Under the pieces are notes generated by a model, which worked only from the letters and a program-made list of their open reading frames with translations, was not told the origin of the DNA and did no database searches. Position numbers and translations under genes: made by a program. From a virus, in IMG/VR virus record IMGVR_UViG_3300009034_000011: DNA of 64,000 nucleotides; one strand, 5' to 3'. Position 1 is the first letter of the stretch; each line of letters opens with the position of its first letter. Shown here one piece after another: positions 28,386 to 55,014 of this stretch.

Positions 28386-28394
28386 ATGATTAAA

Positions 28395-28522: not shown

Positions 28523-28534
28523 ATTCATGCTTAT

Positions 28535-28672: not shown

Positions 28673-28674
28673 CG

Positions 28675-28769: not shown

Positions 28770-28774
28770 CTCCG

Positions 28775-28963: not shown

Positions 28964-28965
28964 CC

Positions 28966-29047: not shown

Positions 29048-29049
29048 CA

Positions 29050-29149: not shown

Positions 29150-29260
29150 CTTCACGATCTGCAAATGAAACATCTTCTAATCTTATCTTATTATATGGGA
29201 GAAGCCTTTTTCTCTCCCAACTTTTTTTTGCCAGCTCTCCTTTTCATTATAACACAGCCC
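29150..29260 (-). promoter_or_regulatory. Candidate sigma70-like promoter region for the Y-RNA array (two TATAAT -10 boxes on the minus strand)
   Basis: Minus-strand sequences CCCAUAUAAUAAG and GUGUUAUAAUGAAAAGG lie 40-110 nt upstream of the first Y unit in an AT-rich spacer after the upstream CDS stop. Confidence 0.3.
29197..29230 (+). terminator. Intrinsic terminator-like hairpin plus U8 tract, plus-strand orientation
   Basis: UGGGAGAAGCCUUUUUCUCUCCCA hairpin (GGGAGA/UCUCCC stem) followed by ACUUUUUUUU. On the minus strand the hairpin is followed by AUAUAAU rather than a U tract. Confidence 0.4.
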
Positions 29261-34967: not shown

Positions 34968-35618
34968 TTAAGTGTGAACCATCTCAAATAACACCTGCTG
35001 CATGCACTTCTTTAACTCTTCACAAGATTCCCGGCGAATGGCACGCTGCAAAGCGGGAACAAACTGAAGATTCTCCATGGAAGCGATACCAAGTAGCGCA
35101 CCATCCCGGACCTGAGCTACAGGATGACGAAGACATTTCTCGAGCAACATAGAACGTGCCCTCCTAGTCCGAGCGTGTTCTATATATCCTACCCAACGAA
35201 GTGCTTCAGATAAAACTTCTGTATTAGCTGTCTCTATAATATTAGCGATTGCATCTATAACTGCATCGTCATAGGTACTAATCATAATCAACAGCTTTCT
35301 GGAAAACCGGCTCTCCATTCCGTCCTCGAAATGTTCTTCCCTACTTGATATAAACAGATCCTCGACTATCTGAAATATTTCGTCCCTAGTAGGGAGCACC
35401 GGTAGGTGATATACTGATTCAGCAGCTTCCTCTGAGGAACAAGCTAGGCGAACCAGCAACTCAAGGTCGCCGTCAGCCAGCTTTACCTCCAGGATCTCGT
35501 TATCTCCCAGGCACTCAGCAATATCCTCAACAACTTTCCGTATCCCGGGAGGTAGATGTTCAAGCTCGTCTCTTAGCATACTGTGCCCTTTTCGCTTTAG
35601 TTGCTTTGTACTCCACAA
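34968..35618 (-). CDS. HEAT-repeat protein (PBS-lyase-type repeats)
   Basis: Several repeats of the form LxxLLxD.d..VRxxAxxaLg. Confidence 0.45.
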   Translation of the reverse strand: MWSTKQLKRKGHSMLRDELEHLPPGIRKVVEDIAECLGDNEILEVKLADGDLELLVRLACSSEEAAESVYHLPVLPTRDEIFQIVEDLFISSREEHFEDGMESRFSRKLLIMISTYDDAVIDAIANIIETANTEVLSEALRWVGYIEHARTRRARSMLLEKCLRHPVAQVRDGALLGIASMENLQFVPALQRAIRRESCEELKKCMQQVLFEMVHT

Positions 35619-36345
35619 CAGTTAGAAGATCAACACGATCCTTTTCCATGCTAGAGTACACCCAAGGTAGATCCTTCACGTCGTGATTGATCAACGTAAG
35701 ATAGAAGTTACCATACAAGACATAAAGAGCAAGCTCAGCAACCGCGTAGTAAAACCAATCCTTTCCGGTATTTCGCCAAAAATTGTTCGGATTCGTCCCT
35801 TTTAAACATCCCTCCACAATAAGCCGTGGAAGCTTCATGTACTCCCAGGGACATACCTGATGCGCATGACGTTCGACAAGAATAGTATTAGAGAACAAAA
35901 CAACATCTTCACACCCCTGATGATCCAATTCTTCTCGCAACTCGGGCCAGAACTTGCAATAAACTGCAGGAGCTCCACCCATAAGATGAAAAACATTTAG
36001 GGGCACTTTAAAGTCTACAGCTGCCTGATCCCTGAAGGCTTTAAATAGTGCAACTAGTGTCACCGCAGAAACATCTATGTCAGGTTCTAGATTGTCCACA
36101 TAGCAATATGGACAATCAAGAGGACAACCAGCTACCTGGACAACGAAATGGTTATTATAAGCCGCCCAAGTTCCACCAAACATCTTAGCCATACGGTAGG
36201 GCGACTTATCACCAATGTCCCGACGAGTATCTGTGTACACAGTACAGACGCGAGCATAATCATCATAACAAACGATTCCCTTACCCCGGTCGGCTTCAAT
36301 ATCCTCCCGCTGTAACTTACCTATCTTCGAAATCGGAATCTTCAC
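35560..36345 (-). CDS. radical SAM protein (function unknown; adjacent to the que genes)
   Basis: CPLDCPYC CxxxCxxC cluster and downstream GGAP (SAM glycine-rich) motif. Confidence 0.55.
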   Translation of the reverse strand: MKIPISKIGKLQREDIEADRGKGIVCYDDYARVCTVYTDTRRDIGDKSPYRMAKMFGGTWAAYNNHFVVQVAGCPLDCPYCYVDNLEPDIDVSAVTLVALFKAFRDQAAVDFKVPLNVFHLMGGAPAVYCKFWPELREELDHQGCEDVVLFSNTILVERHAHQVCPWEYMKLPRLIVEGCLKGTNPNNFWRNTGKDWFYYAVAELALYVLYGNFYLTLINHDVKDLPWVYSSMEKDRVDLLTVVEYKATKAKRAQYAKRRA

Positions 36346-36954
36346 TTTGTCACTGCCTTCCCATGCGCAATGGCTAACCGCTCGACAACTGTTGCAAAAG
36401 TATCGATATGAATTTTATGTTCGCCCACAACTATAAAGCCGGTATGAGTTAGGCGTATTACTTCAGTCGTCCCTTCAACATCATAGAACCCCTTCTCCAA
36501 AATAATATCGCCACTTTCCAGCTCTATAACAATAGTACAGTATGGATCACCCTTTTGAGGAATTGGAGGTACATAGTAACCTGCCTTCCGCGCTTGATCC
36601 TCAGTCAAAATAAGACTGTTCTCAGGCTCCGAACCTTCACTGCAGATTACTATGACCACAAGAACGGCCAAAAGGCTGATAGTAGAACCGGCTACGCTAA
36701 TTACTAGTGCACACCTACTGCGTATAAAATTACTCATTGCACTCCCTCCAGCACTCTCTTAATCTCGTCGATCTCAGGTGCATCCATCGATACCTCTCCG
36801 CCGACAATATGTAAACGAATAGTCTCCGGTAAAGTGGTAAGGTCTGCCTCAGGGGCAACTACAAACCGACCTCCGATGATAGAAACACTACCAGCCCTAA
36901 TCGCCTCTACCACTTGTTCTACTAATTTTACGTCTATCAACTTATAATCTAACA

Positions 36955-37746
36955 CTATATACCTCTCCGTTTTGGACCCCATATACATTTGTGTTGTTGC
37001 AGCATAAGACGTGCTGCAGATCTATCCCGAATCATCCAGTTAGATAAATCCTGAGAGAATTTCCGATCCTCCAACCATACAGGCGAAATGAAAACATTCG
37101 AAGTAAGTAGTAAGTTATATTTAGTTATAATCTCCCGAGCATAAAGATAATCGTCCTCGTTAGCCACAACAAATTTAACCTCATCCGTCGGTCCGAGGTA
37201 AGCCATATTATCCCAATTCATCTTCTCATGCATACCGGACGAGGGTGTTTTGACATCCATTACTATATGAGCTAGCAACTTAAACGGTCGGATATCAATG
37301 GACCCATTAGTCTCAACATAAGTAATAATCTCATTTTCTAACATTGCACGTAAGAAGCTGCTTGCACTTTCCTCGTTAAGAAGCGGCTCTCCACCTGTAA
37401 ATAGAACAGTACCAATACCATACTTAAGAACTGCCCCTAGAACGTTTTTAACGGAAACTTCCTCACCTCCCTCATACGCATAAGTCGTATCACAGAAACT
37501 ACACCTGAGATTGCAACTGGTTGTGCGCACAATAGTACACACCTGCCCTGTAGACGATCCCTCACCTGATATCGCAGGATAGATCTCACTGATACACATC
37601 ATGACGTTGGGATCATATGGCTTGTAATCTTCATATGGACACTTTTCCGAATCTGCCTCATACGTGCAGACAGTTAAAGCACTTAATAGACAATCTAGCC
37701 TTCCCTCAGGAGTAGTTATCGCCCATCTACAGTCACCCTTAGCCAA
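36955..37746 (-). CDS. queE: 7-carboxy-7-deazaguanine synthase QueE (radical SAM)
   Basis: TSCNLRCSFCDT cluster, FTGGEPLL motif, and size typical of QueE. Adjacent to queD. Confidence 0.7.
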   Translation of the reverse strand: MAKGDCRWAITTPEGRLDCLLSALTVCTYEADSEKCPYEDYKPYDPNVMMCISEIYPAISGEGSSTGQVCTIVRTTSCNLRCSFCDTTYAYEGGEEVSVKNVLGAVLKYGIGTVLFTGGEPLLNEESASSFLRAMLENEIITYVETNGSIDIRPFKLLAHIVMDVKTPSSGMHEKMNWDNMAYLGPTDEVKFVVANEDDYLYAREIITKYNLLLTSNVFISPVWLEDRKFSQDLSNWMIRDRSAARLMLQQHKCIWGPKRRGI

Positions 37747-37748
37747 GT

Positions 37749-38183
37749 CTAATCTCCTTTATCCGATCGATAAGTGGCTGACGAAGTTTCCGTTTCCCAG
37801 ATGGTAACAGATACCACATCTATCTTGGTCCTGTGATCTAGAAAACTGCATACAAGCTTATACAGATGCTTTGCCATACGCTCTGCTGTAGGATCCCCCT
37901 TCATACCGAAAACCTTACACTCCTGTTCCTGTACGAGATCCAGCAGCGGATCCGATTCGTTCAGAATAAGTGTATGATCCCAGTGCTCATCAATCCAATC
38001 TCCAAAGATTCTTTTAAGGACACCGAAGTCCATTACAAAACCAGGACTCCGCCTCTCTAGCTCCGTACTACGTATACGGGCCACGGCAACATAGGAGTGG
38101 CCATGTATGTTACGGCACTTACCTTTATAACGTAGTAACCTATGAGCAGCATCAAACCTTACTTCAACTGCAACTTCGTACAT
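37749..38183 (-). CDS. queD: 6-carboxy-5,6,7,8-tetrahydropterin synthase QueD
   Basis: CRNIHGHSY zinc/catalytic motif and HWDHTLIL. About 144 aa, the PTPS fold size. Confidence 0.7.
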   Translation of the reverse strand: MYEVAVEVRFDAAHRLLRYKGKCRNIHGHSYVAVARIRSTELERRSPGFVMDFGVLKRIFGDWIDEHWDHTLILNESDPLLDLVQEQECKVFGMKGDPTAERMAKHLYKLVCSFLDHRTKIDVVSVTIWETETSSATYRSDKGD

Positions 38184-38267
38184 CAGTCACCCCCAAATTC
38201 TACTGGTTCAACTTACTTCCTATTATTTTATGAGAAAAGGTATATATTTTCCCATTAAAAATAAAGG

Positions 38268-39287
38268 CTACCCCGAACCCACCGACACATTTGTAAACTT
38301 ATATCCCTCAGCCTTATATACCTTAAACAGCTCGTTACATTGCTCAGGTGAAGAATATACACCAACAACAGCTCCACCCGAACCTGGAAACTTAGCAGGT
38401 ACACCAATAGCACGGGCAATTTGAATCATTCGAAGGTTCCGTTCACCGATAAGACCGTCACCATAAATTTGTCTTCGAAGATCAAAGTTCTTATTCATTA
38501 GTACTGCAAAGCGTTGAAGGTCTTCTTCTTCTAATGCCTGTTTAGCTTGGGATGCATACGTCATAAAGTTGCACATAGCCTCTACTATTACGCTGTCCCC
38601 CTGATCAAACCTATATCGTATTGGATTGTGCATCCTTCCTGAAGTCTTCCCAGGTCTCTCCATATACGCTATGAAAAGCTTTGGAAGAAGACTGGAATCC
38701 ATTCGTACATATATACCATGTCCCAGATCTCCCATGACCTGTTTGTCAAAGTTCATAAAAACCGTGCCGCCGTATGTCTGCACCACTCTATCTTGGAGCC
38801 CTGCAGTTATCTCTAATTCTTTTGCCTCTACACTCAATACTAAGTTCGGCTGTATCTCTAGAGGTATGTCTGCATCCGTTAAACCGTAAAATTCCATCAA
38901 CGCTTTAAGTAGCGCAACTATTATGGCACTAGAACCACCGAGGCCGACTTGACGTGGGATATTCGTATCATACCTTATAGTATAGTTCCTCTCATCAAGT
39001 TCGATGCCCTTCTCCCTACAGTATCCACTAAACCGCGTACATGTAGCAGTTATGAGGCGTAGTCCTCCGTAGTAACCATAACGGGACGACATATTAACTA
39101 AATCTTCAAGGCAGCTAAACTCTGTTGGATCGTGCGTCTGATGCGGAATAATACATAACCGCCAACTGTCTGTGAGGAAGACTTCCGCCCAGAAGTTACC
39201 TATACATGTAGAAAGAGTCTTACCATAAAAACAATCAGAAGGGTTACCCATGAGGCCTACCCTTGCAAACGCTTTCTTTACTATCAT
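38268..39287 (-). CDS. GHMP-family sugar kinase
   Basis: N-terminal ARVGLMGNPSD and the ATP-binding PRQVGLGGSSAIIVA (PxGSGLGSSAA) motif. Confidence 0.55.
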   Translation of the reverse strand: MIVKKAFARVGLMGNPSDCFYGKTLSTCIGNFWAEVFLTDSWRLCIIPHQTHDPTEFSCLEDLVNMSSRYGYYGGLRLITATCTRFSGYCREKGIELDERNYTIRYDTNIPRQVGLGGSSAIIVALLKALMEFYGLTDADIPLEIQPNLVLSVEAKELEITAGLQDRVVQTYGGTVFMNFDKQVMGDLGHGIYVRMDSSLLPKLFIAYMERPGKTSGRMHNPIRYRFDQGDSVIVEAMCNFMTYASQAKQALEEEDLQRFAVLMNKNFDLRRQIYGDGLIGERNLRMIQIARAIGVPAKFPGSGGAVVGVYSSPEQCNELFKVYKAEGYKFTNVSVGSG

Positions 39288-39565
39288 ACTTTACCTTCCA
39301 GACTCTATGGCTTCCAACATCCTACCGACTACACCGCCAATATCCTTAAATATCATAGCATCCCTATAACCATAACCAACATAACGAAGAGTTTGGAGAA
39401 CAGCAAATCTAAGTCCATGGGATATCCAATCGGTTCTAAACTGGTTGGAAACTCCTACGCCCTGACCTGATACAGCATGTCTCTCACAAACGCTTCTTAT
39501 GCTGCCAATCCAGTTTGTGCCATGTGCCTGATCATAACCTCTTATATCACCATATGTAGGAACTC

Positions 39566-40579
39566 TCATGCACCATTCGCCTTATCGATAAGTTGCTTCA
39601 AAACGTTAGGATTTTCCCTAAGAAAGTCTAGCCACCCCTTTCTAGTCTTTGACTTCTCACTAACCTCCGGCCATAGAAAGTGCGCAGTTCCTTTCTTAGT
39701 AAATGTATCGGTATTAGCCTGAACATAATCAAAATACTCAGCCTCGACATCGTAACCCCTATCGAAATAGAAGTCGATCTCACACTTTTTAAACGGCAGC
39801 GCAACTTTATTCTTGGGAATATTTATACCCATTCTGACACCAACAATATCAGAACCATCCTTTATCTTCGCGCGCTGTTTGACTTCTATACGAATGGAAG
39901 AGTAGAACTTTAAAGCCCTACCCCCCGGGGTCGTCTCTGGATTACCAAACATAACACCAACCCGCATTCGTATCTGGTTAATAAAAATAGCAGCTGTCCT
40001 AGTCTGCCGAATTTTCTCTGAAAGTTTACGTAATGCCTGACCCATCCATCTAGCTTGTAAACCTACATGGTGGTCACCAAAAGCCCCCTCTAGCTCTTCC
40101 CTAGGACATAGTCCAGCTATGGAATCTATCACCACCAAGCCAACACCTTGATCGATACATTTATCTATGGTATCGAAAACGTCCTGGGTACAGGACTGCT
40201 GAGAAACCAATAGTAGTCTCATATCAACATTTAGATTTTCAGCCCACTCAGCCAAGAGTGCATTCTCGGCGTCCATAAACAAACATAGGATACCTTGCTT
40301 TTGAGCCTCTGCAATCGCACTTAAGGCTATAGAACTCTTCCCAGAGCCTTCGTTACCATAAAGCTCCACTATTCTACCTTTTGGAAACCCCTGCACACCT
40401 AAGGCCTCGTTAAGAAGAAAAGAACCAGTAGGTATTACTTCAACAGGTTCAAAGACTCCCTCCTCACCGTACAACATAATGGAGCCTCTATCTTTCCTAC
40501 CCGCCCTCACTGCCTCCGCGATCTCGTGTAGCTGTTGTATCTGCTCCTCCACTTTTAACATTTCCAAACCCCCTAGCAA
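39566..40579 (-). CDS. RecA/UvsX-family recombinase
   Basis: ELYGNEGSGKSS Walker A, LVVIDSIAGL Walker B region, RecA core length. Confidence 0.6.
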   Translation of the reverse strand: MLGGLEMLKVEEQIQQLHEIAEAVRAGRKDRGSIMLYGEEGVFEPVEVIPTGSFLLNEALGVQGFPKGRIVELYGNEGSGKSSIALSAIAEAQKQGILCLFMDAENALLAEWAENLNVDMRLLLVSQQSCTQDVFDTIDKCIDQGVGLVVIDSIAGLCPREELEGAFGDHHVGLQARWMGQALRKLSEKIRQTRTAAIFINQIRMRVGVMFGNPETTPGGRALKFYSSIRIEVKQRAKIKDGSDIVGVRMGINIPKNKVALPFKKCEIDFYFDRGYDVEAEYFDYVQANTDTFTKKGTAHFLWPEVSEKSKTRKGWLDFLRENPNVLKQLIDKANGA

Positions 40580-40834
40580 ATAGCATTATACCCTCCGCTT
40601 CTCTATACAAGGGCTGTAGTTCGTCAGGCAGTTGCCTTTCGAAAGTATCTGAAATAGCCGCTAATATAGCAAATCGAACCTGTTGACGTTGTAGAAATCC
40701 ATCTGCGTCCTTTCTCTGCTGCTCTTCAGAGAGGAACATATGCTGCCTATAATCCAGAAGCATATTGGTGTAACATTGCTCAAAAACTACTAGGATTTGC
40801 TCCTTAGTAAGCTTGGGCTGATATATATCGCACA

Positions 40835-42307
40835 TTACAGAGTCTCCTTAATAACCTCCCAGTAAGGCAGATCATGTAACTTTGTACGGAACTCGGGATC
40901 GGAAGTATACGGAATGAACTTTATTAACGATTTGTTAGTGCTGCCAAACCCAACATTAGGGGGTATATAACCAAGCTTACCCCAAGCATTGCTGTAATGC
41001 ACATCAGAACCACAGTTATCACAGTAAACGGGGTAACCATCGTCTGATATTTGTGGGTAGTAACAGGAGCATACAAGCTCGAAAGGAACACCTATCTTTA
41101 TTCCTACTTCCAACATTTCAGACTTCATTAAATTAACGAAGGGAGACACTACTTCCAGGCGCGTCTGCCAATTTGATGAATACGGAGTTACTTCTCCTAA
41201 CTTCTTCAGAAACGGCACACCATTATCAGGATAGCTCCCCCCGTCACTAAGGTTCATACCTAATGCAACGCTGCCATATCCCATCTGTTCCGCCATTGCG
41301 AGAGCAAAGGCAGTCATAATCAAGTTACGCTGAGGTACATAAGAAAATGTAGATTCTGCATCTTTTAATGGATCAAGCTCAGGCTTCTCCTCCTCTAACA
41401 GAGGGGAACTAAACTGCTCCATCGGCAAAGTTATTTCATACCACGGTATGCCAAGAGTTACACATATCTTCTGGCTACAGTGTCTCTCAACTGCCTGTGC
41501 CTGCTGCCCGTAGTTGAAAAACAACGCCCCTACCCTATACCCGAGAACTTGATATAATCTAAGAGTAGTAGTAGAATCAAGTCCAGATGAACATGCAACT
41601 AATACACTCTTATCCTGAACCTCTCTATATATGTCGTCCCACGTCTCCTTCATTCCTGAATCTAAGCGCAAAAGTTTATACGGTGGGAACTCCAGAGGAG
41701 TTAGTTCAGTAGGTAAAGATGAATAATAGAGAACGTCTTCGTACACCCCATAATACAGCGGTTGAAAGTTTTTCGCGAGATAAAATTGACTCCCTATCCT
41801 ATAGTAGGCTGCGATAGCAAACGAACCTTCCAAGAGCTTCTTGGTAGCAAAATATACGCCTCTGTCTGCGAAAAGATAGGGTAGAACAATTGAGTCGACT
41901 GAAGACTCACTTTGCCAGTCAACCTCCGGTAATCCAGTACGCAACTCTCGATCGTTTGCTATTGTTCCGTTATGGGATACAAGCCAGTGTCGTTTGTTAA
42001 AAGGTTGCAAGTCCTTCAGAGAAACACCATCTGCGCGCCCTGTCATCTCGGGCTCTGGTGCAGCTCTCGTCTGTAGCATCAAACAACGACCACCTGTCGG
42101 TAAATTACAAAGGAACTGTACCAGTTGTGTTTTCCCCTTGTCCCCTTTAGAGAGAAGCATATGCTGGGAACGATCTACCCTGGAAGCATTGTAATATACT
42201 CCTACGGCGTCTCGACCCCTCAAAAGAAGTTGCTTTTTGGCTATATCCAACAACCCGCCAAAGCTAGCAGGCCGTATGGGAGAGAACATCCCCATAATAT
42301 AACACAT
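40835..42307 (-). CDS. queC: glutamine amidotransferase-QueC fusion (Gat-QueC; 7-cyano-7-deazaguanine / archaeosine-type synthase)
   Basis: N-terminal Cys at position 2 (Ntn class II GATase) and central LVACSSGLDSTTT PP-loop (SGGxDS) typical of QueC. Confidence 0.6.
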   Translation of the reverse strand: MCYIMGMFSPIRPASFGGLLDIAKKQLLLRGRDAVGVYYNASRVDRSQHMLLSKGDKGKTQLVQFLCNLPTGGRCLMLQTRAAPEPEMTGRADGVSLKDLQPFNKRHWLVSHNGTIANDRELRTGLPEVDWQSESSVDSIVLPYLFADRGVYFATKKLLEGSFAIAAYYRIGSQFYLAKNFQPLYYGVYEDVLYYSSLPTELTPLEFPPYKLLRLDSGMKETWDDIYREVQDKSVLVACSSGLDSTTTLRLYQVLGYRVGALFFNYGQQAQAVERHCSQKICVTLGIPWYEITLPMEQFSSPLLEEEKPELDPLKDAESTFSYVPQRNLIMTAFALAMAEQMGYGSVALGMNLSDGGSYPDNGVPFLKKLGEVTPYSSNWQTRLEVVSPFVNLMKSEMLEVGIKIGVPFELVCSCYYPQISDDGYPVYCDNCGSDVHYSNAWGKLGYIPPNVGFGSTNKSLIKFIPYTSDPEFRTKLHDLPYWEVIKETL

Positions 42308-43065
42308 AAAACGCCCCCCTACTCAGCAAGTCCATCGAATATTTCTTTAAATACAATAACAGGCCCCTGTTGCGCCTTCACTTCTGCAAGCTGCTCTTCA
42401 GTAAACACTTTACCTGATATATAAGCTCGCCACACTGGCTCTTCATCTAATGCATCCTCGACTACATGAAACTGCCAACCATATCTCGCCCTAGCTATGT
42501 TGACAGCACGTGACAAAAGCTCCAAATCAGTACTAGTCACATCAGTATTATAAAATGTACAGCACGGAGTTTCAAGAGTTGCACGAATATCCTTACCCAT
42601 CCAAACCTCACTCACCTGAAACGTAAATATGCAACATAACTTTAGATCCGCGTACCAAGCTTGAGATGTCTCTGGCTATGGGCCGTAGGACCGCATCTGC
42701 GACACTTGCCAACACATTCTCAGGCAGCTCCGAGGAACTCTGACAGATAGCAGCAACTGTCTCGAGTACTAGCCGATAGTCAGTACCCCGGCGTAGTAAC
42801 TCTATTTTCTTTTCTAACAATGCATCCGCTGGTGTTCCCAATTACATTTCCTCCCGTGCCAACTTTACAACTGATGGTTCCTCAGGTTCGGTACTAAACT
42901 GCATCATTTGCTTCATAAGTACTAAAACATGTGGTACCTGCATACGTATTTCTGGAAATTGTTTCTTAAGGTCTTCCCCATAAGCTTTCTTCATCAGGAA
43001 CTCAAGTTCATTCACCGTGTGTAACCACTCATCAAAATCTAGAGAAAGACCTATTTCCGCTTTCA

Positions 43066-44139
43066 TCATTCCCACACACACAATCCATAATCGTCAAAAC
43101 AGAAGTTCAGAAGCTGTCCACCGTGGTCCTTTAGGGCACGACGGAGAATATACTCTTGACCCCTTTGTGCAAGGAACAGAAGACAGCCACCGCCGCCAGC
43201 GCCACATGCCTTTCCAGCTTGCATACCATTTTCAAGAGCCACCCCAAAGAAATTCTCAACTACCTCGTTTGTGATACTAGGATGTAATTCCTTCTGCCAT
43301 ATCCAGCTCTGATTCATAGCCTTGGCCAACGCATCTATATCATGACCGTAAAACGCCCCCTGGGCTATCAAAGCTGTATTTACAAGCTTCTCAAGTGGTA
43401 AGTGATTCTTACCAGCATCAAATTCTTCATTAACATGTCTGTGAATATCAGATGAGAGACGCGATTGCCCAGTATAACACAAAACTAATCTCTTCTCGAG
43501 CTCAAACCTCATCGACTGGTCGAGAGGAAAAACAGGATTATGAAACACATCATCACCGTGGCATTCCCAACCAGATATACCACCGAAAGCTGCTGCATAC
43601 TGATCCTGCGTACCACTTAACAAGCCTAACTCCTCAGTTTCCAATCTGAAAGCGGTATCAGCTACCTCCCTCTGTGTTGGAAACTTTCCGGCGTATTTCA
43701 TAAGAGCACCGATAAGCGCTACACCTAAAGATGCAGAAGTCCCCAAACCACTACCAGGTGGAGCCTCCGACCTGGTAACTATCTCGATTCCGCCGAAGTC
43801 CTCAAACAATCTCTTGCAGGCCGCTTTCGCAAGGTCCATAGTCCCGTCATACTCTATATCTCCTATAGATTGTGTATGGGCCCATACATCGAGATCCGCA
43901 CTATACATGTAAATGGACCCTTTCTCTACTCTCTCTCGCACAGGATATCCATATCGGCTCGATCTAGCTGTCTTCTCGGGAAGTAGTCTAACAGTAACAT
44001 AGGTGTGCAGAGTAACTGCTGCGTTAACAACGAGCCCTGGGTTCCTCTTCGCAAATTTAGGTACATCTGTCCATGATCCCGCAAAATCTATTCTAACAGG
44101 CGCTCGTGCAATAACATCAGGCCTGCCCATCCTTTTCAC
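43066..44139 (-). CDS. GHMP-family kinase (HddA/fucokinase-like)
   Basis: RAPVRIDFAGSWTDV N-terminus and PPGSGLGTSASLGVA ATP motif. Confidence 0.55.
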   Translation of the reverse strand: MKRMGRPDVIARAPVRIDFAGSWTDVPKFAKRNPGLVVNAAVTLHTYVTVRLLPEKTARSSRYGYPVRERVEKGSIYMYSADLDVWAHTQSIGDIEYDGTMDLAKAACKRLFEDFGGIEIVTRSEAPPGSGLGTSASLGVALIGALMKYAGKFPTQREVADTAFRLETEELGLLSGTQDQYAAAFGGISGWECHGDDVFHNPVFPLDQSMRFELEKRLVLCYTGQSRLSSDIHRHVNEEFDAGKNHLPLEKLVNTALIAQGAFYGHDIDALAKAMNQSWIWQKELHPSITNEVVENFFGVALENGMQAGKACGAGGGGCLLFLAQRGQEYILRRALKDHGGQLLNFCFDDYGLCVWE

Positions 44140-45589: not shown

Positions 45590-45618
45590 TTGTACGCCTC
45601 CTTCTAGGAAATCTCCTA

Positions 45619-46230: not shown

Positions 46231-46318
46231 TATCTGTTTCCCTCTACCTTATTATATGCGAACTCCCTTCAAATATCGAGAAAATGTTACCTAAAAAGTT
46301 CCTAAAAAAGTAGTGGAA

Positions 46319-46804
46319 TTACTTCCCAGAGGAACCATGACCAGCTGTACCTCTCTTCGAGGGAGGTAAAGTGGCCACCTGCAGCCACCTTATCGGCCAC
46401 TTCCGGCGAAGACAAAACTGTGCAACCCTATCTCCCTTACTGACCTCGAACCTCGCCGGTGTCCAATTAAACATAAAAGGAGAGACCTCACCCCGGTACC
46501 CCGCATCAATAGTTCCATGGTGCAAACATAGACCTTGCTTTCCAAGACTTGATCTACATTTAAACTCGCCCTCATAGCCCTCCGGGATGTCCATATATAT
46601 CCCCGTAGGTATAAGCGTAGCTATACCCGGACGAACCCAAACATCCTCGAGGGCGTATATATCCCAGCATGCATCTGCTGGATACGGCTGAGTCGGCATT
46701 TGAGCTCCCGGATCGAGCTTAATCTGAACTTTAACCTCAGCAGGTATAACCGCTAGACCAGCTTTAGTAAGGATACGCCTAACCAATCTACCAAAAAGCC
46801 CCAT
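46319..46804 (-). CDS. dut: dUTP diphosphatase (dUTPase)
   Basis: GTIDAGYRGE (motif 3), RVAQ (motif 4) and RGTAGHGSSG (motif 5). Confidence 0.7.
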   Translation of the reverse strand: MGLFGRLVRRILTKAGLAVIPAEVKVQIKLDPGAQMPTQPYPADACWDIYALEDVWVRPGIATLIPTGIYMDIPEGYEGEFKCRSSLGKQGLCLHHGTIDAGYRGEVSPFMFNWTPARFEVSKGDRVAQFCLRRKWPIRWLQVATLPPSKRGTAGHGSSGK

Positions 46805-46816
46805 TTCACGCCTCCA

Positions 46817-49051: not shown

Positions 49052-49286
49052 TCACGTTCTCCCTCAACTTCCTAAGTCTCAGTCTAGCAGCAGATCGTAT
49101 CTCCTTAAACGGCGAGGCAAGATGTTCAGGTAACTCCCCCAAAGATTTCTGGAGAACTACGTCACATAGATCACACTCCTCGCCCACAAGGAACCTCGCT
49201 TCCCTATAGGACATTCCAGCTAGCATACGATCGTAAATATACTTCAGTGCCTGAGCTCGTGTAACAATGGGTTTAGACATCCACAT
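49044..49286 (-). CDS. small HEAT-like motif protein (paralog family)
   Basis: LGELPEHLASPFKEIRSAARLRLRKL. Confidence 0.5.
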   Translation of the reverse strand: MWMSKPIVTRAQALKYIYDRMLAGMSYREARFLVGEECDLCDVVLQKSLGELPEHLASPFKEIRSAARLRLRKLRENVNV

Positions 49287-49290
49287 TCTC

Positions 49291-51783
49291 CTAAAACTGG
49301 CCTAGATCCAGGTAATCGCCACCCCAACGCTCAACAACCCCAAGGTCGATCTTCAGAGGAACGATAATATGCCGAATGGGCGCCAACATCTGTTCTCGCA
49401 TAATGTTAACTGCATCACGTACTTCACCTTTGGGCGCCTCAGCTACTATCTCATCATGTATCTGCATTAACAACCTTGCCTTAAGCCCGTTACCCCTAAA
49501 AGCTTCATCAATCCTAGTTAAGGCAAGATTAGTCACATCAGATGCAAGACTCTGTATGGGGCTGTTCCGCGCCTGTCTCGCTGCCATAGCAGAGACAGTA
49601 GTATCCGTACTATGTATTTCAGGTAATCGCCTATATCTTCCAAACAGATTCTTAACGTAACCCTGTTGTTTGACGAAGGCTTCTTGATCTTTCAACCATC
49701 GAGAAGATATAGGGAACATCTTAAAAAACGAGTCAATAAACGCCTGAGCCTCTGTATCGGACATCTCAAACTCTGCCGCTAAACTTCTAGCTCCCCTCCC
49801 ATAGATAAGACCGAAGACGACGCCTTTCACTTTCGTACGCTCGTCTATTGAGATCTGATCCGGCGACTTGTTCAGCAAAATGGAACCTAGATGACTGTGT
49901 ACATCATCTGTTGCTAAAACCTCAATAAACTTCGGATCTTTACTGTAGTTAGCCCACATGCGTAGCTCGTGCTGAGAATAGTCACCTCTCACCAGGTACC
50001 AGTCCTCGGTAGGAATAAATAAACCCTTGATAATGGACTCTCGGGGAATATTTTGTAAATTTGGACGTGAAGAAGCCAATCTCCCAGTAGCGGTTCCATG
50101 CTGCAGATAGCTGGTATGTAACCGACCATCCGGAGCAAGCACCTTCAATAGACCAGCTATATAGGTACTATTCAATTTAGCCGTCCGCCTGTACTCCAAA
50201 AGTAAATCTAATACGGGATGTTTAGTTCTTTCCCGTAGCGCTTTGAGGGTAGCTTCATCTGTCGAAGGCCCGCCCTTCGGCGTCCTGAGACGTGGATCTT
50301 TTAACGCAGGAAGCCCTAACTGCTCATAAAGTAGGGATCGGAGCTGCTTAGTGGATCTGACATTCACATCCTCTTCTGCATAACTGTTTATTTCCTCCTG
50401 GAGCTCCTCAAGTCTATCATCAAACTCTTTACTAAGCTCCGACATACGCTCTGTATCCACCCTTACCCCTACAAGCTCCATATACATAAGCGTTTTCATA
50501 ACCTTTGTAATAATCTTACTATAGAATTTATATAGTTGACTACTCTCTTTAAGCCCTGACCTAAACAACTCATAGAGGCGGAATGTAGCATCAGCATCCG
50601 CTAACGCATAGGATTTTAAAGTAGAAACAGGAATTTTCCCATAATGTTTTTCCTCAATAGGAATTCTACTCCGCTTCACTTCATTAAACGCACTCTCAAG
50701 GTCTTTAGAATAGTTCCCGAGATCAGTAAACCTAGCCGCGAGAGGCTTGAGACCGTGAGCTGTATTCTCATCCAACAAATGATGCATCAACATGGAATCA
50801 CTAAGGGTTCCACGGATATCCCAACCAAAGTAATGGATAAGAAATTTCAAGTCAAACTTTAAGTTATGGCCAATCTTACCTATACTAGGATCTTCAAATA
50901 CCTGCCGTAACCCCTCTTGTATAAGTGCCCAGTCACTCCTAGGCCATACCCAGTTACCATCTTCCTCCATGGGAAGATACCAAGCTGAAAATAAGCCAGT
51001 GGAAAAGACCATACAAAGTATACGGTCTGCCCAAAAGTTAAAACCTGTAGTTTCAATATCTATAACAAACTGTTCAGACTCACGTAAATCCTGAATTAGC
51101 TCCCCAAAGCTTTCCAGATCGTGAACTTCCCTATATATCACAGATCGTTGTGGCGGGACAGTATAACCATCATCAATAAACTGCTTCACCTTCTCCGCAA
51201 CATCTCTGAGAAGGACCTCATTTGACGGATTCCTTAGTACTGCGGCAGGATGAATACATGGGAGAATATAACACCCGAACTCCTCACTCTCCTCAAAAAT
51301 TCCACTTCGACTCATTATACCGGAGGGTGTACCCTTAGGAACTACACCGTAGTACCCAATGTTACCAAGTGCCACAATAAGCTTTCGGGGATAGGCAGTG
51401 ATTTCATATTGTAGATACTTCTCCCTACATATCCGACACTCCTCAGAAGTTGGGGTTCGATTATTAGTAGGGCGACACTTAACAGTATTAGTGACAAAAG
51501 CAGCTTTACGAGTATAAATACCCACTGCGTTAAATGTGTCTTCTAATTTCTTCCCAGCTCTACCAACAAAGGCCTCACCTTCTCTTTCCTCATCCCTTCC
51601 GGGAGCCTCACCCACAATAACTATTGGGGAGTTGAAATCACCGCGGGGATATACCATTTCGCGAGACTCATTAGTAGGTCGTATGTCTCCCGAAACGGTA
51701 CAATCAGTACACTGTGGAAAATACGAACCCCAAAGCCAGCCCTCTGGGTCCCTTTGCACCTCTGCCTGCATCTCAGTAGTCAT
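49291..51783 (-). CDS. polA: family-A DNA polymerase (Pol I-like) with N-terminal family-4 UDG-like domain and 3'-5' exonuclease
   Basis: GEAPG...FVGRAGKKL (UDG family 4), VIDIETTG exo I, KVKGVVFGLIYGRGA motif B, LMQIHDEIV motif C. Confidence 0.75.
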   Translation of the reverse strand: MTTEMQAEVQRDPEGWLWGSYFPQCTDCTVSGDIRPTNESREMVYPRGDFNSPIVIVGEAPGRDEEREGEAFVGRAGKKLEDTFNAVGIYTRKAAFVTNTVKCRPTNNRTPTSEECRICREKYLQYEITAYPRKLIVALGNIGYYGVVPKGTPSGIMSRSGIFEESEEFGCYILPCIHPAAVLRNPSNEVLLRDVAEKVKQFIDDGYTVPPQRSVIYREVHDLESFGELIQDLRESEQFVIDIETTGFNFWADRILCMVFSTGLFSAWYLPMEEDGNWVWPRSDWALIQEGLRQVFEDPSIGKIGHNLKFDLKFLIHYFGWDIRGTLSDSMLMHHLLDENTAHGLKPLAARFTDLGNYSKDLESAFNEVKRSRIPIEEKHYGKIPVSTLKSYALADADATFRLYELFRSGLKESSQLYKFYSKIITKVMKTLMYMELVGVRVDTERMSELSKEFDDRLEELQEEINSYAEEDVNVRSTKQLRSLLYEQLGLPALKDPRLRTPKGGPSTDEATLKALRERTKHPVLDLLLEYRRTAKLNSTYIAGLLKVLAPDGRLHTSYLQHGTATGRLASSRPNLQNIPRESIIKGLFIPTEDWYLVRGDYSQHELRMWANYSKDPKFIEVLATDDVHSHLGSILLNKSPDQISIDERTKVKGVVFGLIYGRGARSLAAEFEMSDTEAQAFIDSFFKMFPISSRWLKDQEAFVKQQGYVKNLFGRYRRLPEIHSTDTTVSAMAARQARNSPIQSLASDVTNLALTRIDEAFRGNGLKARLLMQIHDEIVAEAPKGEVRDAVNIMREQMLAPIRHIIVPLKIDLGVVERWGGDYLDLGQF

Positions 51784-52232
51784 TCGTCTTCCTCCGTTGG
51801 GGCGTCTAAATCGGATGCTGGACTGCCCTCTCGCAGCCTCAAGTCCGGAATCATACCATTTGCAAGGTAATCACTCCCAAGGTGGTCAACTAGGAAGGCC
51901 CAGTCACTTATGTCGTGTTGTAGTATAGCCCCATCAAACTCCTTAGGAATATGCAGTAACTGGTGCATTACCAAAGCAGTCTGCTGTGCAGGCCCCAAGT
52001 CATCCCACCCAGCTCTAAAGTATATAGTAACAATATACATTATCTTGGGATTAAGGAGATTAAATGGCGGCTTCACAGGCCGGCAGTTACCAGGTTTTGT
52101 TTTCTGAGACCGACTGATCTCACGCACGTAAAGCAATCTATCCGGATCTACACGCTCAAACCATTCCGGATACCTAGCTATTAAATCTCTTGCTATAGCT
52201 TCCACTTCCGGGTCTTCAATATAGTCACTCAT
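51780..52232 (-). CDS. hypothetical protein
   Basis: 150-aa ORF. Confidence 0.4.
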   Translation of the reverse strand: MSDYIEDPEVEAIARDLIARYPEWFERVDPDRLLYVREISRSQKTKPGNCRPVKPPFNLLNPKIMYIVTIYFRAGWDDLGPAQQTALVMHQLLHIPKEFDGAILQHDISDWAFLVDHLGSDYLANGMIPDLRLREGSPASDLDAPTEEDE

Positions 52233-52841
52233 TTATACTTTCACCTCCGTCTCCACCCCCAGGGTAGAAAGAACTCGATCGAGCACATGCTGACATACAG
52301 TTTCCTCAGGCTGTGTTCCATCTATAATAACAACGCATATACCCTCACTTAGTAGCTGTTTAGACCACCAGATGTAACTTTGCTGTATCGCTTCAAACCG
52401 TGCCCTAGTTAACTTAGTCTGCCCATCGTCTCTAGCCATGAATACATCGTAGGGGATTGTAAAGACAAACGTCACATCGGGAGCTTGGCACCTATCCAGA
52501 TAGACTTCATCCATATGTTTCTTAAAATTTGGATCAAGATCTTCCCACCACTCATAGGCCAGGTTAGATAGAGCATAACGATCACAGAGAACGACTTTTC
52601 CTTCCCTTAACGCAGGACTTATCACTGTCAACTCAGCTAAACGAATCGCCTGCCAGAAAAACATATAGACAATCTCGTCTGGGAAATTTCCTATCATGGA
52701 GGGAATCCTGTTCCCAGCAATACATTTAGTTACGGTTGAGAGAACAGGAATTTCTTTCTGCTCTAAAGATTTCCTAACAAACTCTACCGCACTAGATTTC
52801 CCGGCACGATCAATTCCGTCAAAAGCAATAAACTTACTCAT
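52233..52841 (-). CDS. tmk: thymidylate (dTMP) kinase-like nucleotide kinase
   Basis: FIAFDGIDRAGKSS P-loop as in Tmk (EGxDGxGKST). 202 aa. Confidence 0.55.
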   Translation of the reverse strand: MSKFIAFDGIDRAGKSSAVEFVRKSLEQKEIPVLSTVTKCIAGNRIPSMIGNFPDEIVYMFFWQAIRLAELTVISPALREGKVVLCDRYALSNLAYEWWEDLDPNFKKHMDEVYLDRCQAPDVTFVFTIPYDVFMARDDGQTKLTRARFEAIQQSYIWWSKQLLSEGICVVIIDGTQPEETVCQHVLDRVLSTLGVETEVKV

Positions 52842-53646
52842 TGAACGGCTCCCTCCCCGCAGCCCAGATGTTAAGGGTTAACATATTCTTCACCGCAACA
52901 GTATACTGCTCATCTGTAAACGTTATATCACCGTCCACGGTACCCTCGGGTTTGAAATATGTAGCCATATCCATATCTATCTCTCTCTCCGATAGAGCTA
53001 GAATACTAGCTATGGCAGAATCTGCACCTGATATCCAGCTGAACTTACTAAGCTCCCTGGCACATATAGGAGCTCCAAATCCGGTTGCATAGAATCTCTT
53101 ATGTTTAAATCTCTGAAACTGTCGATCCAATAGCTGAAGGAACTCTAAGCGAGTCTTGGTCCGTCTCGCTCCTTCCTGGTCCTCCCACTCAAACATATCA
53201 TCTATAAATAAGGTATTTATAGCAATAGTATGGCAGCAGTGCTCAGGTAAAGCTGCAAATTGTTCTACACAGCGAAACCACTCATCACGTGTCCGGCCCT
53301 GGGAAACGCACATAACATTCGCCCTAAAGTTTAGATTTCTGTACGCTAATCCCCCAAACTGCTGAGCTGCAGCAACAGTCCTGGCCATATCATTCATGTA
53401 ATCTGGTGCGTATACATACGCAGGTTGTATTTCTACCGCGAGCTCAATCATAGTTCGCATATCAAGAGGTTCGCCGCGCTCCCAGACTCCGTTATCGAGA
53501 TAAACATCTCGACCCTGTCTAGCCCGATCTATAAAGAATTGCTTGTAATCTCCATTCTGTAATGCAATATGCGCTAGACAAAAATCAAAGTCTCCGAGTT
53601 CTGAAAGCTCCAAATGATTCACCGGTACGACATGACCTATTTGCAT
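52834..53646 (-). CDS. dpdA: candidate DpdA-like DNA 7-deazaguanine transglycosylase (TGT-fold)
   Basis: 270-aa alpha/beta protein. No clear alternative assignment. Position in a genome encoding FolE, QueD, QueE and Gat-QueC fits phage dpdA contexts. The call is weak and inferred mainly from context. Confidence 0.35.
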   Translation of the reverse strand: MQIGHVVPVNHLELSELGDFDFCLAHIALQNGDYKQFFIDRARQGRDVYLDNGVWERGEPLDMRTMIELAVEIQPAYVYAPDYMNDMARTVAAAQQFGGLAYRNLNFRANVMCVSQGRTRDEWFRCVEQFAALPEHCCHTIAINTLFIDDMFEWEDQEGARRTKTRLEFLQLLDRQFQRFKHKRFYATGFGAPICARELSKFSWISGADSAIASILALSEREIDMDMATYFKPEGTVDGDITFTDEQYTVAVKNMLTLNIWAAGREPFNE

Positions 53647-54005
53647 TTCATAACTCCTATATACTCTTTCGACTCATGAGCTTTAGTTCCTCTTGTTCGT
53701 ATTCAATAAGGAGCTTCGCAAACTCAGTTGCAGTAGCTGCATCCTCTTCATTCAACCTACCATCTTTCAACTGTCTAGGTATCTCTGCATTTATTTGTCT
53801 TCGCAAAGCAGCCAAACTATCCCTCAGATACTTAGAAAAAGGAATAGCTGCTAGTACACCGGCCCCTGGACCGCGTTTCTCAGCCTCTGTAAACTCCTCT
53901 TCCCACTTTTCTCGCATATCGTATATAAACTCTTCTCGAGTAGGTGCTTTAGCTCGCACCATCTGACTAATACCTCGATAGTCTTCCGCTGTAGGTCTGC
54001 GAATC

Positions 54006-54209
54006 TTACCCATTACCATTCCTTTCCAAAGACGCTAAAAAAGTTTCAAAACTCGCCTTAACTATAATCCATCTAGAGTTCCACTTGTCTGTTTGCTTCC
54101 TACCCTCAAGAACACCATCCCTTACCAACCTTTGTACATAACCGGGACTTTTGCGAAGAGTCCCAGCGACGTATTTCAATGTAACATATGGGGTTCTCTT
54201 AACCACCAT
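54006..54209 (-). CDS. small HTH DNA-binding protein (excisionase/MerR-like)
   Basis: LKYVAGTLRKSPGYVQRLVRDGVL helix-turn-helix. Confidence 0.45.
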   Translation of the reverse strand: MVVKRTPYVTLKYVAGTLRKSPGYVQRLVRDGVLEGRKQTDKWNSRWIIVKASFETFLASLERNGNG

Positions 54210-55014
54210 GCTGCGCCTCTCGCATTCTTATAATATCAAAAAACTCATCCTTACAGCCGGCGAGGTTCTCAAGAAAGATACCACGAACTGCAGAGGTGGC
54301 AGTTTCCGCATCTCGCTTCATTATGCCTCTGGTGCACATGCAATCGTGCTGAGCAGCAACCAGAACAATAACTCCTTTGGGTTTAAGTACATTATTTATA
54401 CAATCAGCTATCTCATTAGTCATTTTTTCTTGCAACTGAGGACGCTTAGCAAAGGCCTCGACGACCCTTCCCAACTTTGATAGACCCACTATAGTCCTTT
54501 CAGGAATGTAACCCACATAGGCATAACCCGTTATAACAGCCAGGTGATGGATACAGACAGAGTCGAAGTCTATCCTGCGCGTTACGACCAAGTTCGGGGG
54601 ATCAGGAGCAGGTGATTGCACTTGCAAGAATTTAGCAGGATCCTGGTTAAGTCCTGCGCAAAGTTCCGCATACATCCGAGCAACCCTCTCTGGTGTAGTC
54701 TCTAAATCCGGTTGCTCCAAATCAAGACCATAGAGATCATATAACCCTTCCAATATTAGCCCGACACCATCTCTTATAACGGAATGTGCAGCAAACTTAT
54801 CAGCTGTGGCCTTAACCTCACCCCAAAACTCTTGAACATGTTCACTACACAGCACAATATCATGATTCTCACCGTTACCGTCAGGTAGGGTTATAGTTTG
54901 GAGGTCACCTAGAATACCACAGTGTCCGCACCGTTTATACTTATTCTCCTTCAGTCTCCCCGCCAGTCTCAGTAACCGTCTCTGCATCTGCATTGTAATA
55001 CTTTCCTTCCTCAT
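54199..55014 (-). CDS. folE: GTP cyclohydrolase I (FolE)
   Basis: CIHHLAVITGYAYVGYIPERTIVGLSKLGRVVEAFAKRPQLQEKMT aligns with FolE CEHHLVPF...QVQERLT. C-terminal HDCMCTRG zinc site. Confidence 0.7.
   Translation of the reverse strand: MRKESITMQMQRRLLRLAGRLKENKYKRCGHCGILGDLQTITLPDGNGENHDIVLCSEHVQEFWGEVKATADKFAAHSVIRDGVGLILEGLYDLYGLDLEQPDLETTPERVARMYAELCAGLNQDPAKFLQVQSPAPDPPNLVVTRRIDFDSVCIHHLAVITGYAYVGYIPERTIVGLSKLGRVVEAFAKRPQLQEKMTNEIADCINNVLKPKGVIVLVAAQHDCMCTRGIMKRDAETATSAVRGIFLENLAGCKDEFFDIIRMREAQHGG

Follow-up and report, generated by a model that had tools for sequence, protein, structure and literature searches.

A probable DpdA3-type 7-deazaguanine DNA-modification system, encoded with a Gat-QueC fusion, in an uncultured tailed phage

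An uncultured tailed phage represented by IMG/VR virus record IMGVR_UViG_3300009034_000011 probably encodes a DpdA3-type 7-deazaguanine DNA-modification system, in which an archaeosine-type deazapurine would replace guanine (G) in DNA. The analysis covers a 64,000-nt part of an 86.8-kb JGI metagenome contig (the window), and the genes of the predicted system lie mainly within a 20-kb region at positions 34968-55014. A first-pass annotation of the sequence had proposed that this region combines a preQ0/archaeosine-type pathway with a DpdA transglycosylase, a proposal that is borne out by four intact biosynthetic enzymes and by the placement of the DpdA candidate in the DpdA3 subfamily. Among the few viral rewrites of a canonical base is the replacement of G by 7-deazaguanines, a change that stops many restriction enzymes. 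Anti-restriction systems of this kind are already known, but no study of a cultured phage has dealt with DpdA3 paired with Gat-QueC. The locus also offers two testable leads for the DpdA3 family, whose activity has never been reconstituted: a conserved Tmk-like partner and a purine phosphoribosyltransferase (PRTase) that recurs in que clusters.

A candidate DNA transglycosylase of the DpdA3 subfamily

The transglycosylase candidate is encoded as follows.

52834..53646, minus strand: DpdA3-family transglycosylase of the TGT/DpdA superfamily, a minimal TIM barrel (tblastn, AlphaFold2 model, Foldseek, BFVD)

A TGT-fold DpdA candidate had been suspected at this position, and the open reading frame (ORF) proved to be real and conserved. 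In tblastn searches against GenBank phages it matched 24 records, all from Campylobacter (CP220 group), Cellulophaga (phiST group), Flavobacterium (immuto) or Chryseobacterium phages. The founders of the DpdA3 subfamily, CP220 gp056, phiST CGPG_00065 and immuto_64, were matched with E values of 2e-12, 3e-9 and 2e-7, respectively; CP220 gp056 was the best of these matches, and immuto_64 is annotated as DpdA. The subfamily was defined by HHpred from its phiST, CP220 and immuto founders, and in the phages analyzed it goes together with full replacement of G (PMC10516641). A DpdA3-family hidden Markov model (HMM) recognized exactly one ORF in the window, with an E value of 3e-118. Profile searches with the candidate gave no Pfam or NCBIfam-type hit, and its PHROG matches were only to families of unknown function. 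Of the check that had been suggested for this ORF, the Pfam part therefore came out empty, while a TGT-type fold was recovered by structure comparison.

An AlphaFold model built from 14 metagenomic homologues had a pLDDT of 92.2 and a pTM of 0.90. When this model was compared with the PDB using Foldseek, ranks 1-48 were all TGTs or the DpdA structure 7ui4 (E values of 3e-7 to 1e-4), and other TIM barrels entered the list only from 2e-4. In BFVD the model matched phiST DpdA3 (M4SLA5) with TM-scores of 0.83/0.86 and an E value of 2e-17, and the next matches were phage proteins annotated as queuine tRNA-ribosyltransferase. TGT-fold similarity, on which the first-pass proposal had been made to depend, is thus present. 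Taken together, the sequence and model comparisons assign 52834..53646 to the published DpdA3 subfamily.

A joint alignment of DpdA3 proteins (7 sequences from 5 lineages) contains 15 invariant columns. These include D50, D81 and D208, which are positioned at or just past the C-terminal ends of barrel strands. The spacing of the three residues is 31/127, as compared with 35/126 for Asp95/Asp130/Asp256 of bacterial DpdA, which in the Salmonella enzyme serve as general acid/base, base-recognition residue and nucleophile, respectively (PMC10164549). Approximately 60 residues follow D208, versus approximately 157 after Asp256 in bacterial DpdA. Since the large DNA-contacting insertion of the bacterial enzyme, Ins8, occupies residues 256-383 (PMC10164549), a tail this short makes a full-size Ins8 impossible in the candidate. 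By homology 52834..53646 is predicted to exchange guanine, with DNA as its likely target by analogy with CP220, phiST and immuto.

Biosynthetic enzymes and the predicted base

Four enzymes would supply the deazapurine.

54199..55014, minus strand: FolE, GTP cyclohydrolase I (IA) (PF01227, 1.5e-53, 181 bits, cut-off 27; NF006826, 184 bits, cut-off 162)
37749..38183, minus strand: QueD, 6-carboxytetrahydropterin (CPH4) synthase (PTPS, 4e-31; TIGR03367, 1e-23; signature CRNIHGH)
36955..37746, minus strand: QueE, 7-carboxy-7-deazaguanine synthase (phrog_2076 'QueE-like', 1.2e-34; TIGR03963, 1.7e-55; TIGR04349, 6e-55)
40835..42307, minus strand: Gat-QueC, a class-II glutamine amidotransferase-QueC fusion, preQ0 and G+ synthase (GATase_6, 3e-13; GATase_7, 1.5e-11; QueC, 4e-38)

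FolE, QueD and QueE were found where they had first been called, with intact motifs and strong family scores. FolE exceeds both of its curated cut-offs. QueD carries a CxxxHGH-type motif (CRNIHGH) and not the LxxxHRHxF variant that characterizes DpdL (PMC10516641). The CxxxCxxC motif of radical S-adenosylmethionine (SAM) enzymes is present in QueE as CNLRCSFC; the protein scores 188 bits with TIGR03963, against an equivalog cut-off of 260, and it likewise falls under the cut-off of TIGR04349. It is 57% identical over 260 aa, extension included, to its counterpart in a relative, L010. The extension is an N-terminal, Cys-rich segment of 50 aa that is conserved and also found in L010. FolE has an N-terminal extension of its own, of roughly 90 aa with a CxxC...C.EH pattern. 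Both extensions may be extra metal-binding modules.

The amidotransferase-QueC fusion had been recognized from an Ntn-type Cys2 and an SGLDS PP-loop, an identification that the GATase_6, GATase_7 and QueC matches and an alignment with Gat-QueC of phage 9g uphold. The two phage proteins align from residue 1 to approximately 440 (29% identity, 88% coverage, E = 2e-43) and have in common Cys2, the Ntn-amidotransferase block HNGTIAND, SxGxDST, YPDN and C-terminal Cys residues. The N-terminus reads MCYIMG, with the catalytic Cys2 of the Ntn type, and a GGGGGG run in a G-rich stretch that ends 6 nt before the ATG is a possible ribosome-binding site. QueC proteins are marked by a PP-loop, SGGxDS, and a zinc motif, C(x)8CxxCxxC (PMC13329287). 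The PP-loop of the window protein, SSGLDST, has one substitution relative to this consensus; 9g has SGGMDS.

In phage 9g, Gat-QueC stands in place of QueC and, with DpdA, gives dG+ in DNA; the enzyme is also able to supply preQ0 (PMC6884629). Because the window protein has the same architecture as the 9g enzyme, G+ is the best guess for its product, predicted by analogy, and dPreQ0 is the fall-back.

Relatives of DpdA3 and Gat-QueC were retrieved from IMG/VR by alignment-based scans. The GAT domain matched 59 GenBank phage records, with Campylobacter, Cellulophaga and Flavobacterium, the main DpdA3 groups, not among them, and the combination of DpdA3 with Gat-QueC was not detected in GenBank or cultured phages at tblastn sensitivity. 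Both genes do occur together elsewhere: on a Logan contig, genes for a DpdA3 (76% identical) and a Gat-QueC (69% identical) are arranged as in the window, and both proteins are encoded on IMG/VR contig 3300002966_000021 (L052 and L132) and on a 125-kb contig (L053 and L137). Among the best 80 Gat-QueC loci in IMG/VR, DpdA3 lies within 10 kb in 7, a 9g-type DpdA in 63 and neither in 10. Single-protein scans of IMG/VR with DpdA3, Gat-QueC and the second radical SAM protein described below returned no close relatives. The DpdA3 plus Gat-QueC pairing is uncharacterized in cultured phages, yet it is recurrent in several uncultured viral lineages.

Palindrome usage in the window was compared with the expectation of a 5-mer Markov model. 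Palindromes of 6 bp that contain G/C show no depletion (observed/expected, O/E, 1.0-1.17), while the A/T-only site ATTAAT is absent (0 observed vs. 9.5 expected; approximately 0.005 after correction for 64 tests). This is the pattern that would arise if G-containing sites were chemically protected and only G-free sites needed to be avoided, and as a signal in favor of G-site protection it is suggestive only. The O/E of CATG in the window is 0.74.

Gene order and the proposed pathway

All credible genes of the window lie on the minus strand, its GC content is 43-49%, and GC skew is uniform at approximately -0.2 on the plus strand. The 20-kb region had no nucleotide-level match to GenBank phages by megablast. 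The following neighbors of the pathway genes bear on the argument.

55695..56408, minus strand: helix-turn-helix (HTH) domain plus purine PRTase, 6-oxopurine PRTase-like (PF00156, 4e-8, and HTH_17)
53657..54019, minus strand: p120, a conserved 120-aa protein between FolE and DpdA3 (same position in relatives L003-L005, 43% identity)
52233..52841, minus strand: Tmk-like nucleoside monophosphate (NMP) kinase (PF02223, 1.5e-18; TIGR00041, 72 bits, under the cut-off of 83)
49291..51783, minus strand: DNA polymerase A (PolA) with an N-terminal domain resembling uracil-DNA glycosylase (UDG) (DNA_pol_A, 1.7e-108; UDG, 1e-27; exonuclease, 1.7e-22)
46319..46804, minus strand: dUTPase/DCD-superfamily protein (PF00692, 3.5e-23)

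In the direction of transcription, genes for DnaB and primase, a sigma-like protein and the HTH-PRTase are followed by FolE, an HTH protein with p120, and the candidate DpdA. Next come the Tmk-like kinase, a metallopeptidase, UDG-PolA, a class II ribonucleotide reductase (RNR), the dUTPase, a gp32-like single-stranded DNA-binding protein (SSB) and a NusG-like protein; then GHMP kinase 2, Gat-QueC, RecA, GHMP kinase 1, QueD and QueE; and lastly two small proteins, the second radical SAM protein, a DHH phosphoesterase and SbcCD-like genes. The span therefore also carries ordinary replication and recombination genes (RecA, gp32-like SSB, NusG-like, dUTPase, class II RNR, UDG-PolA and Tmk). The order PRTase-FolE-p120-DpdA3-Tmk-PolA is kept in relatives, as is the position of the dUTPase/DCD gene adjoining PolA and RNR. 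Pfam and PHROG searches with p120 gave no match. The product of 46319..46804 is an ordinary dUTPase or possibly a dNTP clean-up enzyme. Fusion of a UDG-superfamily domain to PolA is also seen in relatives L003 and L048/L051, and in L049.

The chemical steps of the pathway can be predicted from homology. FolE would convert GTP to dihydroneopterin triphosphate, QueD would make 6-carboxytetrahydropterin, and QueE would carry out the radical-SAM ring contraction to 7-carboxy-7-deazaguanine (CDG). With ATP, the QueC half of Gat-QueC would convert CDG to preQ0, and the amidotransferase half would supply ammonia to give the amidine G+, the archaeosine base. DpdA3 would then take guanine out of DNA and put the deazapurine in, by a double displacement that uses the conserved aspartates. 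The co-transcribed Tmk-like kinase is a conserved partner of DpdA3. The PRTase adjoining FolE would most likely carry the released guanine through GMP to GTP, feeding the pathway. The most likely outcome is a genome whose G has given way, largely or fully, to dG+ or dPreQ0, and such DNA would be expected to resist restriction enzymes. DNA as the target and a high level of replacement are both suggested by analogy with CP220, phiST and immuto, whose genomes are fully substituted (PMC10516641). Under this scheme the phage PolA must copy or tolerate a modified template.

Several points weigh against this interpretation. PDB sequence searches with the DpdA candidate, including two profiles, gave nothing meaningful, and the presumed equivalence of D50, D81 and D208 to Asp95, Asp130 and Asp256 is drawn from spacing, not superposition. 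Base exchange by a DpdA3 has yet to be demonstrated biochemically, and published attempts in heterologous hosts failed (PMC10516641). Instead of the consensus C(x)8CxxCxxC, the zinc motif of QueC reads CxCx13CxxC; it has four Cys residues in non-canonical spacing, only three of which align with 9g. The pathway genes are scattered across 20 kb among replication genes and form no single compact operon. Finally, all four queuosine-family tRNAs are encoded (Asp-GUC, Asn-GUU, His-GUG and Tyr-GUA), making a tRNA target possible.

tRNA as an alternative target

If tRNA were the substrate, the TGT-like protein would insert a deazapurine of the queuosine or archaeosine type into the phage's own tRNAs. 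ARAGORN identified 30 tRNA genes at 20-27824 on the minus strand, covering most amino acids; the presence of the four queuosine substrates among them and the membership of DpdA3 in the TGT superfamily are both compatible with this idea. We nevertheless consider it highly improbable. No QueF was found among the Pfam-scanned ORFs of the window, hence no source of the preQ1 needed for bacterial queuosine (Q) insertion, and a 9g-type Gat-QueC does not feed tRNA Q synthesis (PMC6884629). The candidate consists of a 270-aa barrel alone and lacks the C-terminal parts (zinc or PUA-type) with which TGTs bind tRNA, and its DpdA3 relatives reside in phages with 100% substituted DNA (PMC10516641). The conserved neighbors of DpdA3 in relatives are a kinase and a DNA polymerase, whereas the tRNA genes of the window are at least 25 kb away.

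An Rfam scan of the window detected no preQ1 riboswitch or other regulatory RNA. It returned a short tmRNA-like hit at 11951-12046 and tRNA-like hits at 27638-27707 and 28159-28231. A glycosyltransferase role was considered for a 567-aa ORF at 27435-29138 but rejected: Pfam and PHROG searches gave no family, and a tRNA-Asn gene and two tRNA-like elements lie within it in the same orientation. The ORF probably does not encode a protein.

A conserved kinase next to DpdA3

The Tmk-like gene overlaps the DpdA3 stop codon by 8 nt, both in the window and in relative L051. The generality of this arrangement was assessed by local HMM searches of 80 of 578 IMG/VR DpdA3 loci (L052-L131) together with isolates L001, L002, L045 and L046, grouped into 30 DpdA3 clusters at 60% identity. 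Of the 30 clusters, 24 have a Tmk-like ORF downstream of DpdA3 and in the same orientation. The searches gave 71 Tmk-like hits close to DpdA3; every one is downstream on the same strand, none is upstream, and 35 fall within 100 bp. Another 30 are 101-1000 bp away, and in the nine loci examined the gap is mostly filled by one ORF of approximately 170-280 aa, which in immuto is the formyltransferase DpdN. Another three clusters, phiST and Chryseobacterium phage MA9V-3 among them, instead have a small P-loop kinase-like protein of a different type (AAA_18) abutting DpdA3. CP220 has an HD plus AAA_33 kinase gene upstream of DpdA3 and the Tmk-like gene downstream. No Walker-A protein or P-loop kinase was found within 2.5 kb of DpdA3 in four DpdA3 plus Gat-QueC loci and in two other clusters, and a kinase is therefore not obligatory. 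As judged from these neighborhoods, the Tmk-like kinase is a conserved partner of DpdA3, and the accessory link looks real. We found no discussion of the association in the literature consulted.

The association could mean that bases are exchanged at the nucleotide level and the product is then phosphorylated, that the kinase is an ATP-using partner resembling DpdB, or that both genes are merely co-inherited with a nucleotide-metabolism module. In the first case modification would be pre-replicative: DpdA3 would exchange the base on a free nucleotide (e.g., dGMP), the Tmk-like kinase would phosphorylate the modified dNMP, PolA would incorporate the triphosphate, and a dUTPase, MazG or HD-type enzyme would remove dGTP. 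Such a route would explain complete replacement, and its end product would be the same deazaguanine DNA. The placement of the Tmk-like genes, the P-loop kinases abutting DpdA3 in the three additional clusters and the flanking genes of CP220 are all consistent with it, as are NTP pyrophosphatases adjacent to DpdA3 in phiST and immuto and the short tail after D208 at the site where bacterial DpdA has its DNA-contacting Ins8 (PMC10164549). An ADG nucleoside in CP220-infected cells, according to a report cited in PMC10516641, points in the same direction, and so does a DpdA-less locus, L049, in which Gat-QueC, QueE, FolE2 and a PRTase are combined with a nucleoside 2-deoxyribosyltransferase-family protein and a dGTP diphosphohydrolase domain.

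We regard a pre-replicative route as unlikely. Every characterized TGT or DpdA acts on a polynucleotide, and the published view is of post-replicative insertion (PMC10516641). Tmk is common in phage nucleotide metabolism and may simply make dTDP; no dGTPase was identified in the window, and the loci and clusters that have no P-loop kinase near DpdA3 also count against the route. A related proposal, which we hold with similar reserve and likewise think rather doubtful, is that DpdA3 works as a pair with the co-transcribed kinase, either swapping the base of dGMP ahead of polymerization or requiring the kinase as an obligatory ATP-driven partner like DpdB, with every G becoming dG+. If true, this pairing would explain both the 100% substitution in DpdA3 phages and the inactivity of lone DpdA3 in Escherichia coli, and all-dG+ phage DNA would be a composition so far unreported. 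DpdA3 was inactive in E. coli whether expressed alone or with DpdL (PMC10516641), a result that the Tmk partnership may explain.

A purine phosphoribosyltransferase in que clusters

The solved proteins nearest to the PRTase are archaeal purine PRTases: GpT-2 (4z1o, 1e-16), 1vdm and GpT-1. Among 50,697 phage records, the gene was matched only in immuto phages, where it abuts FolE, and in one other record, MT835497, which was discarded as bacterial-looking (BCCT transporter, PPK2). PRTase genes are present within que clusters in L003-L005, in L049 and in five IMG/VR Gat-QueC loci (L143, L153, L173, L176 and L196), of which four also have a 9g-type DpdA. In these five loci the PRTase is embedded among Gat-QueC, FolE, QueD and QueE genes, and in L153 the PRTase and FolE profiles match one single ORF.

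From its distribution, the PRTase appears to be a recurrent accessory of phage 7-deazaguanine clusters irrespective of DpdA type. Since it accompanies both DpdA types, and since the 9g DpdA acts on DNA, its simplest role would be to return excised guanine, by way of GMP, to the GTP that FolE uses; it is probably a guanine-salvage enzyme. An alternative role is direct phosphoribosylation of the deazapurine. ToyH, for example, phosphoribosylates a deazapurine in toyocamycin synthesis. As a general rule, a ToyH-like route in which the PRTase substitutes for DpdA is ruled out by the 9g-type DpdA found in four of the five PRTase-bearing Gat-QueC loci.

The L049 locus (Logan SRR30949872_143631; 3888-11488 and 20526-21488) encodes the PRTase, QueE, FolE2 (GCHY-1), a nucleoside 2-deoxyribosyltransferase-family protein, dUTPase, UDG-PolA, Gat-QueC, dGTP_diPhyd_N and HD proteins. 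No DpdA3 was detected in its 21 kb. From this content there is a hint that some phages make deazaguanine DNA by nucleotide-level routes.

Additional radical SAM and sugar-related genes

The first-pass annotation also listed a second radical SAM enzyme, two GHMP kinases, a GT9-like transferase and RpiB, and raised the possibility that they elaborate the deazapurine further or decorate it with a sugar.

35560..36345, minus strand: second radical SAM protein (rSAM2), uncharacterized phage-associated family (CPLDCPYC motif; weak Pfam hits only)
38268..39287, minus strand: GHMP kinase 1 (GHMP1), divergent, HddA/mevalonate-kinase-like (GHMP_kinases_N, 7e-11; PDB 3k85, 8e-12)
43066..44139, minus strand: GHMP kinase 2 (GHMP2), sugar-phosphate kinase related to D-glycero-D-manno-heptose 7-phosphate kinase (NF049969, 5e-52; PDB 3k85 and 4n3o, approximately 3e-41)
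15039..15983, minus strand: GT9-like (GT-B) candidate glycosyltransferase, weakly supported (PF01075, 17.4 bits vs. cut-off 22, E = 0.003)
29247..29759, minus strand: RpiB/LacAB sugar-phosphate isomerase (PF02502, 1.8e-39; NF004051, 144 bits vs. cut-off 135)

The radical SAM motif of rSAM2 and the kinase identity of both GHMP proteins agree with the original calls. The GT9-like gene and RpiB, by contrast, are not interleaved with the pathway as had been stated: both are in or next to the tRNA-gene block, 5-20 kb outside 34968-55014. The idea of a further elaboration, in which these five proteins modify the deazapurine or add a sugar to create a new hypermodified base with a heptose theme, found no support in the comparative data, and we consider it improbable.

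rSAM2 is encoded three genes downstream of QueE, and the relative L010 keeps a QueD-QueE-x-p131-rSAM2 block, an arrangement that would suit a role in the pathway. The family comprises 107 related clusters, mostly in phage-like replication modules; no match was found among GenBank phages. Leaving aside L010, the 33 loci of the family that were compared by tblastn (L006-L009, L011-L044) gave no match to the que genes of the window. The rSAM2 profile and model (pLDDT 96) resemble radical SAM enzymes only generically, with hits that include anSME, SuiB, PFL-AE and TYW1. The possibility that it is a QueE paralogue was rejected, as PDB profile matches were only to anSME and SkfB and QueE was absent from the top 50 Foldseek hits. 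A tie to que genes was likewise rejected on neighborhoods, with the exception of L008 (6006-8756), in which genes for the queuosine-precursor transporter QueT, a PP-loop ATPase and a 122-aa protein immediately precede a distant rSAM2 homologue. No other context of the family hints at a deazapurine link.

GHMP1 abuts QueD, but L010 and an ENA relative, both of which have QueD and QueE, lack it at this position; it has no GenBank phage match and is a variable accessory gene. L010, L048/L051 and the ENA relative all retain GHMP2, and L010 has no Gat-QueC at the matching position. In GenBank, GHMP2 relatives are encoded by cyanophages, beside nucleotidyltransferases. Both proteins failed the HddA equivalog test (NCBIfam NF049969, cut-off 600), with 177 bits for GHMP2 and 46 bits for GHMP1; by these scores they are HddA sugar-kinase relatives and not demonstrable HddA. 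The protein at 15039..15983, which had no PDB or phage sequence match, has 6 relatives among 1.84 billion representatives, two of them true GT9; as its score falls short of the GT9 gathering threshold, it can be described at most as having a GT9-like C-terminal half. HddA-like kinases, a GT9-like protein and a sugar-phosphate isomerase do share a heptose theme, but no nucleotidyltransferase or GmhB-type phosphatase was found among the scanned ORFs, and nothing ties these genes to the deazapurine.

Other genes of the window

Several genes elsewhere in the window are also of interest. A Ro60 orthologue at 24072-25781 lies beside the tRNA block (TROVE, 5e-40; Ro60 vWA, 3e-57), and no Y-RNA family was detected in the window at the Rfam threshold. 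A strong match to Tad6, a type I Thoeris inhibitor, at 295-906 (PF25188, 1.8e-41) places an anti-defense gene in the same genome. At 21095-23802, genes for a 651-aa flotillin/SPFH protein and, after it, a YqiJ/NfeD-like membrane protein make an unusual pair for a phage. A ClpP-like protease is encoded at 3251-3877 and an RNA ligase at 17178-17717.

Comparison with known systems

The toyocamycin/sangivamycin pathway combines ToyD, ToyB, ToyC and ToyM with the PRTase ToyH, and thus has preQ0 genes together with a PRTase able to place a 7-deazapurine on PRPP. Its product is a nucleoside, a secondary metabolite of Streptomyces, and it includes no transglycosylase. PRTase genes also occur at 9g-type DpdA loci, and guanine salvage is therefore favored over a toyocamycin-like role for the window enzyme.

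Bacterial DpdA resembles the window DpdA3 in being a TGT-fold DNA transglycosylase with three active-site Asp residues. It differs in its 413-aa length, its large DNA-binding insertion, its ParB-like ATPase, its modification of <0.1% of G and its place in a restriction-modification system (PMC10164549). It needs the ATP-using partner DpdB, followed by DpdC, which suggests one possible role for the P-loop protein adjoining DpdA3.

The dG+ system of phage 9g (Hutinet et al. 2019, PMC6884629) shares FolE, QueD, QueE and a full-length Gat-QueC with the window, and G+ is the predicted product in both. Phage 9g has DpdA1, a compact operon and approximately 25% of its G replaced, whereas the window has DpdA3 and dispersed genes.

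Another close parallel is with the DpdA3 phages CP220, phiST and immuto (PMC10516641, 2023). Their DpdA3 proteins are homologous to that of the window (21-31% identical over the alignments obtained) and have the same fold, FolE, QueD and QueE are co-encoded, and the genes sit in a replication-module context with family A polymerases. A Tmk-like gene is found downstream of DpdA3 in CP220 and immuto, and immuto also has a PRTase adjoining FolE. The DpdA3 and Tmk-like proteins of the window clade form divergent branches. The last biosynthetic steps also differ: the phages described there use QueC* (ADG), DpdL (DG) or QueC with QueF and DpdN (fdPreQ1), whereas the Gat-QueC of the window predicts G+. 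If the high-efficiency enzyme DpdA3 is indeed paired with Gat-QueC, the DNA of this phage would be fully archaeosine-substituted, whereas dG+ has so far been seen only at approximately 25% of G, in phage 9g.

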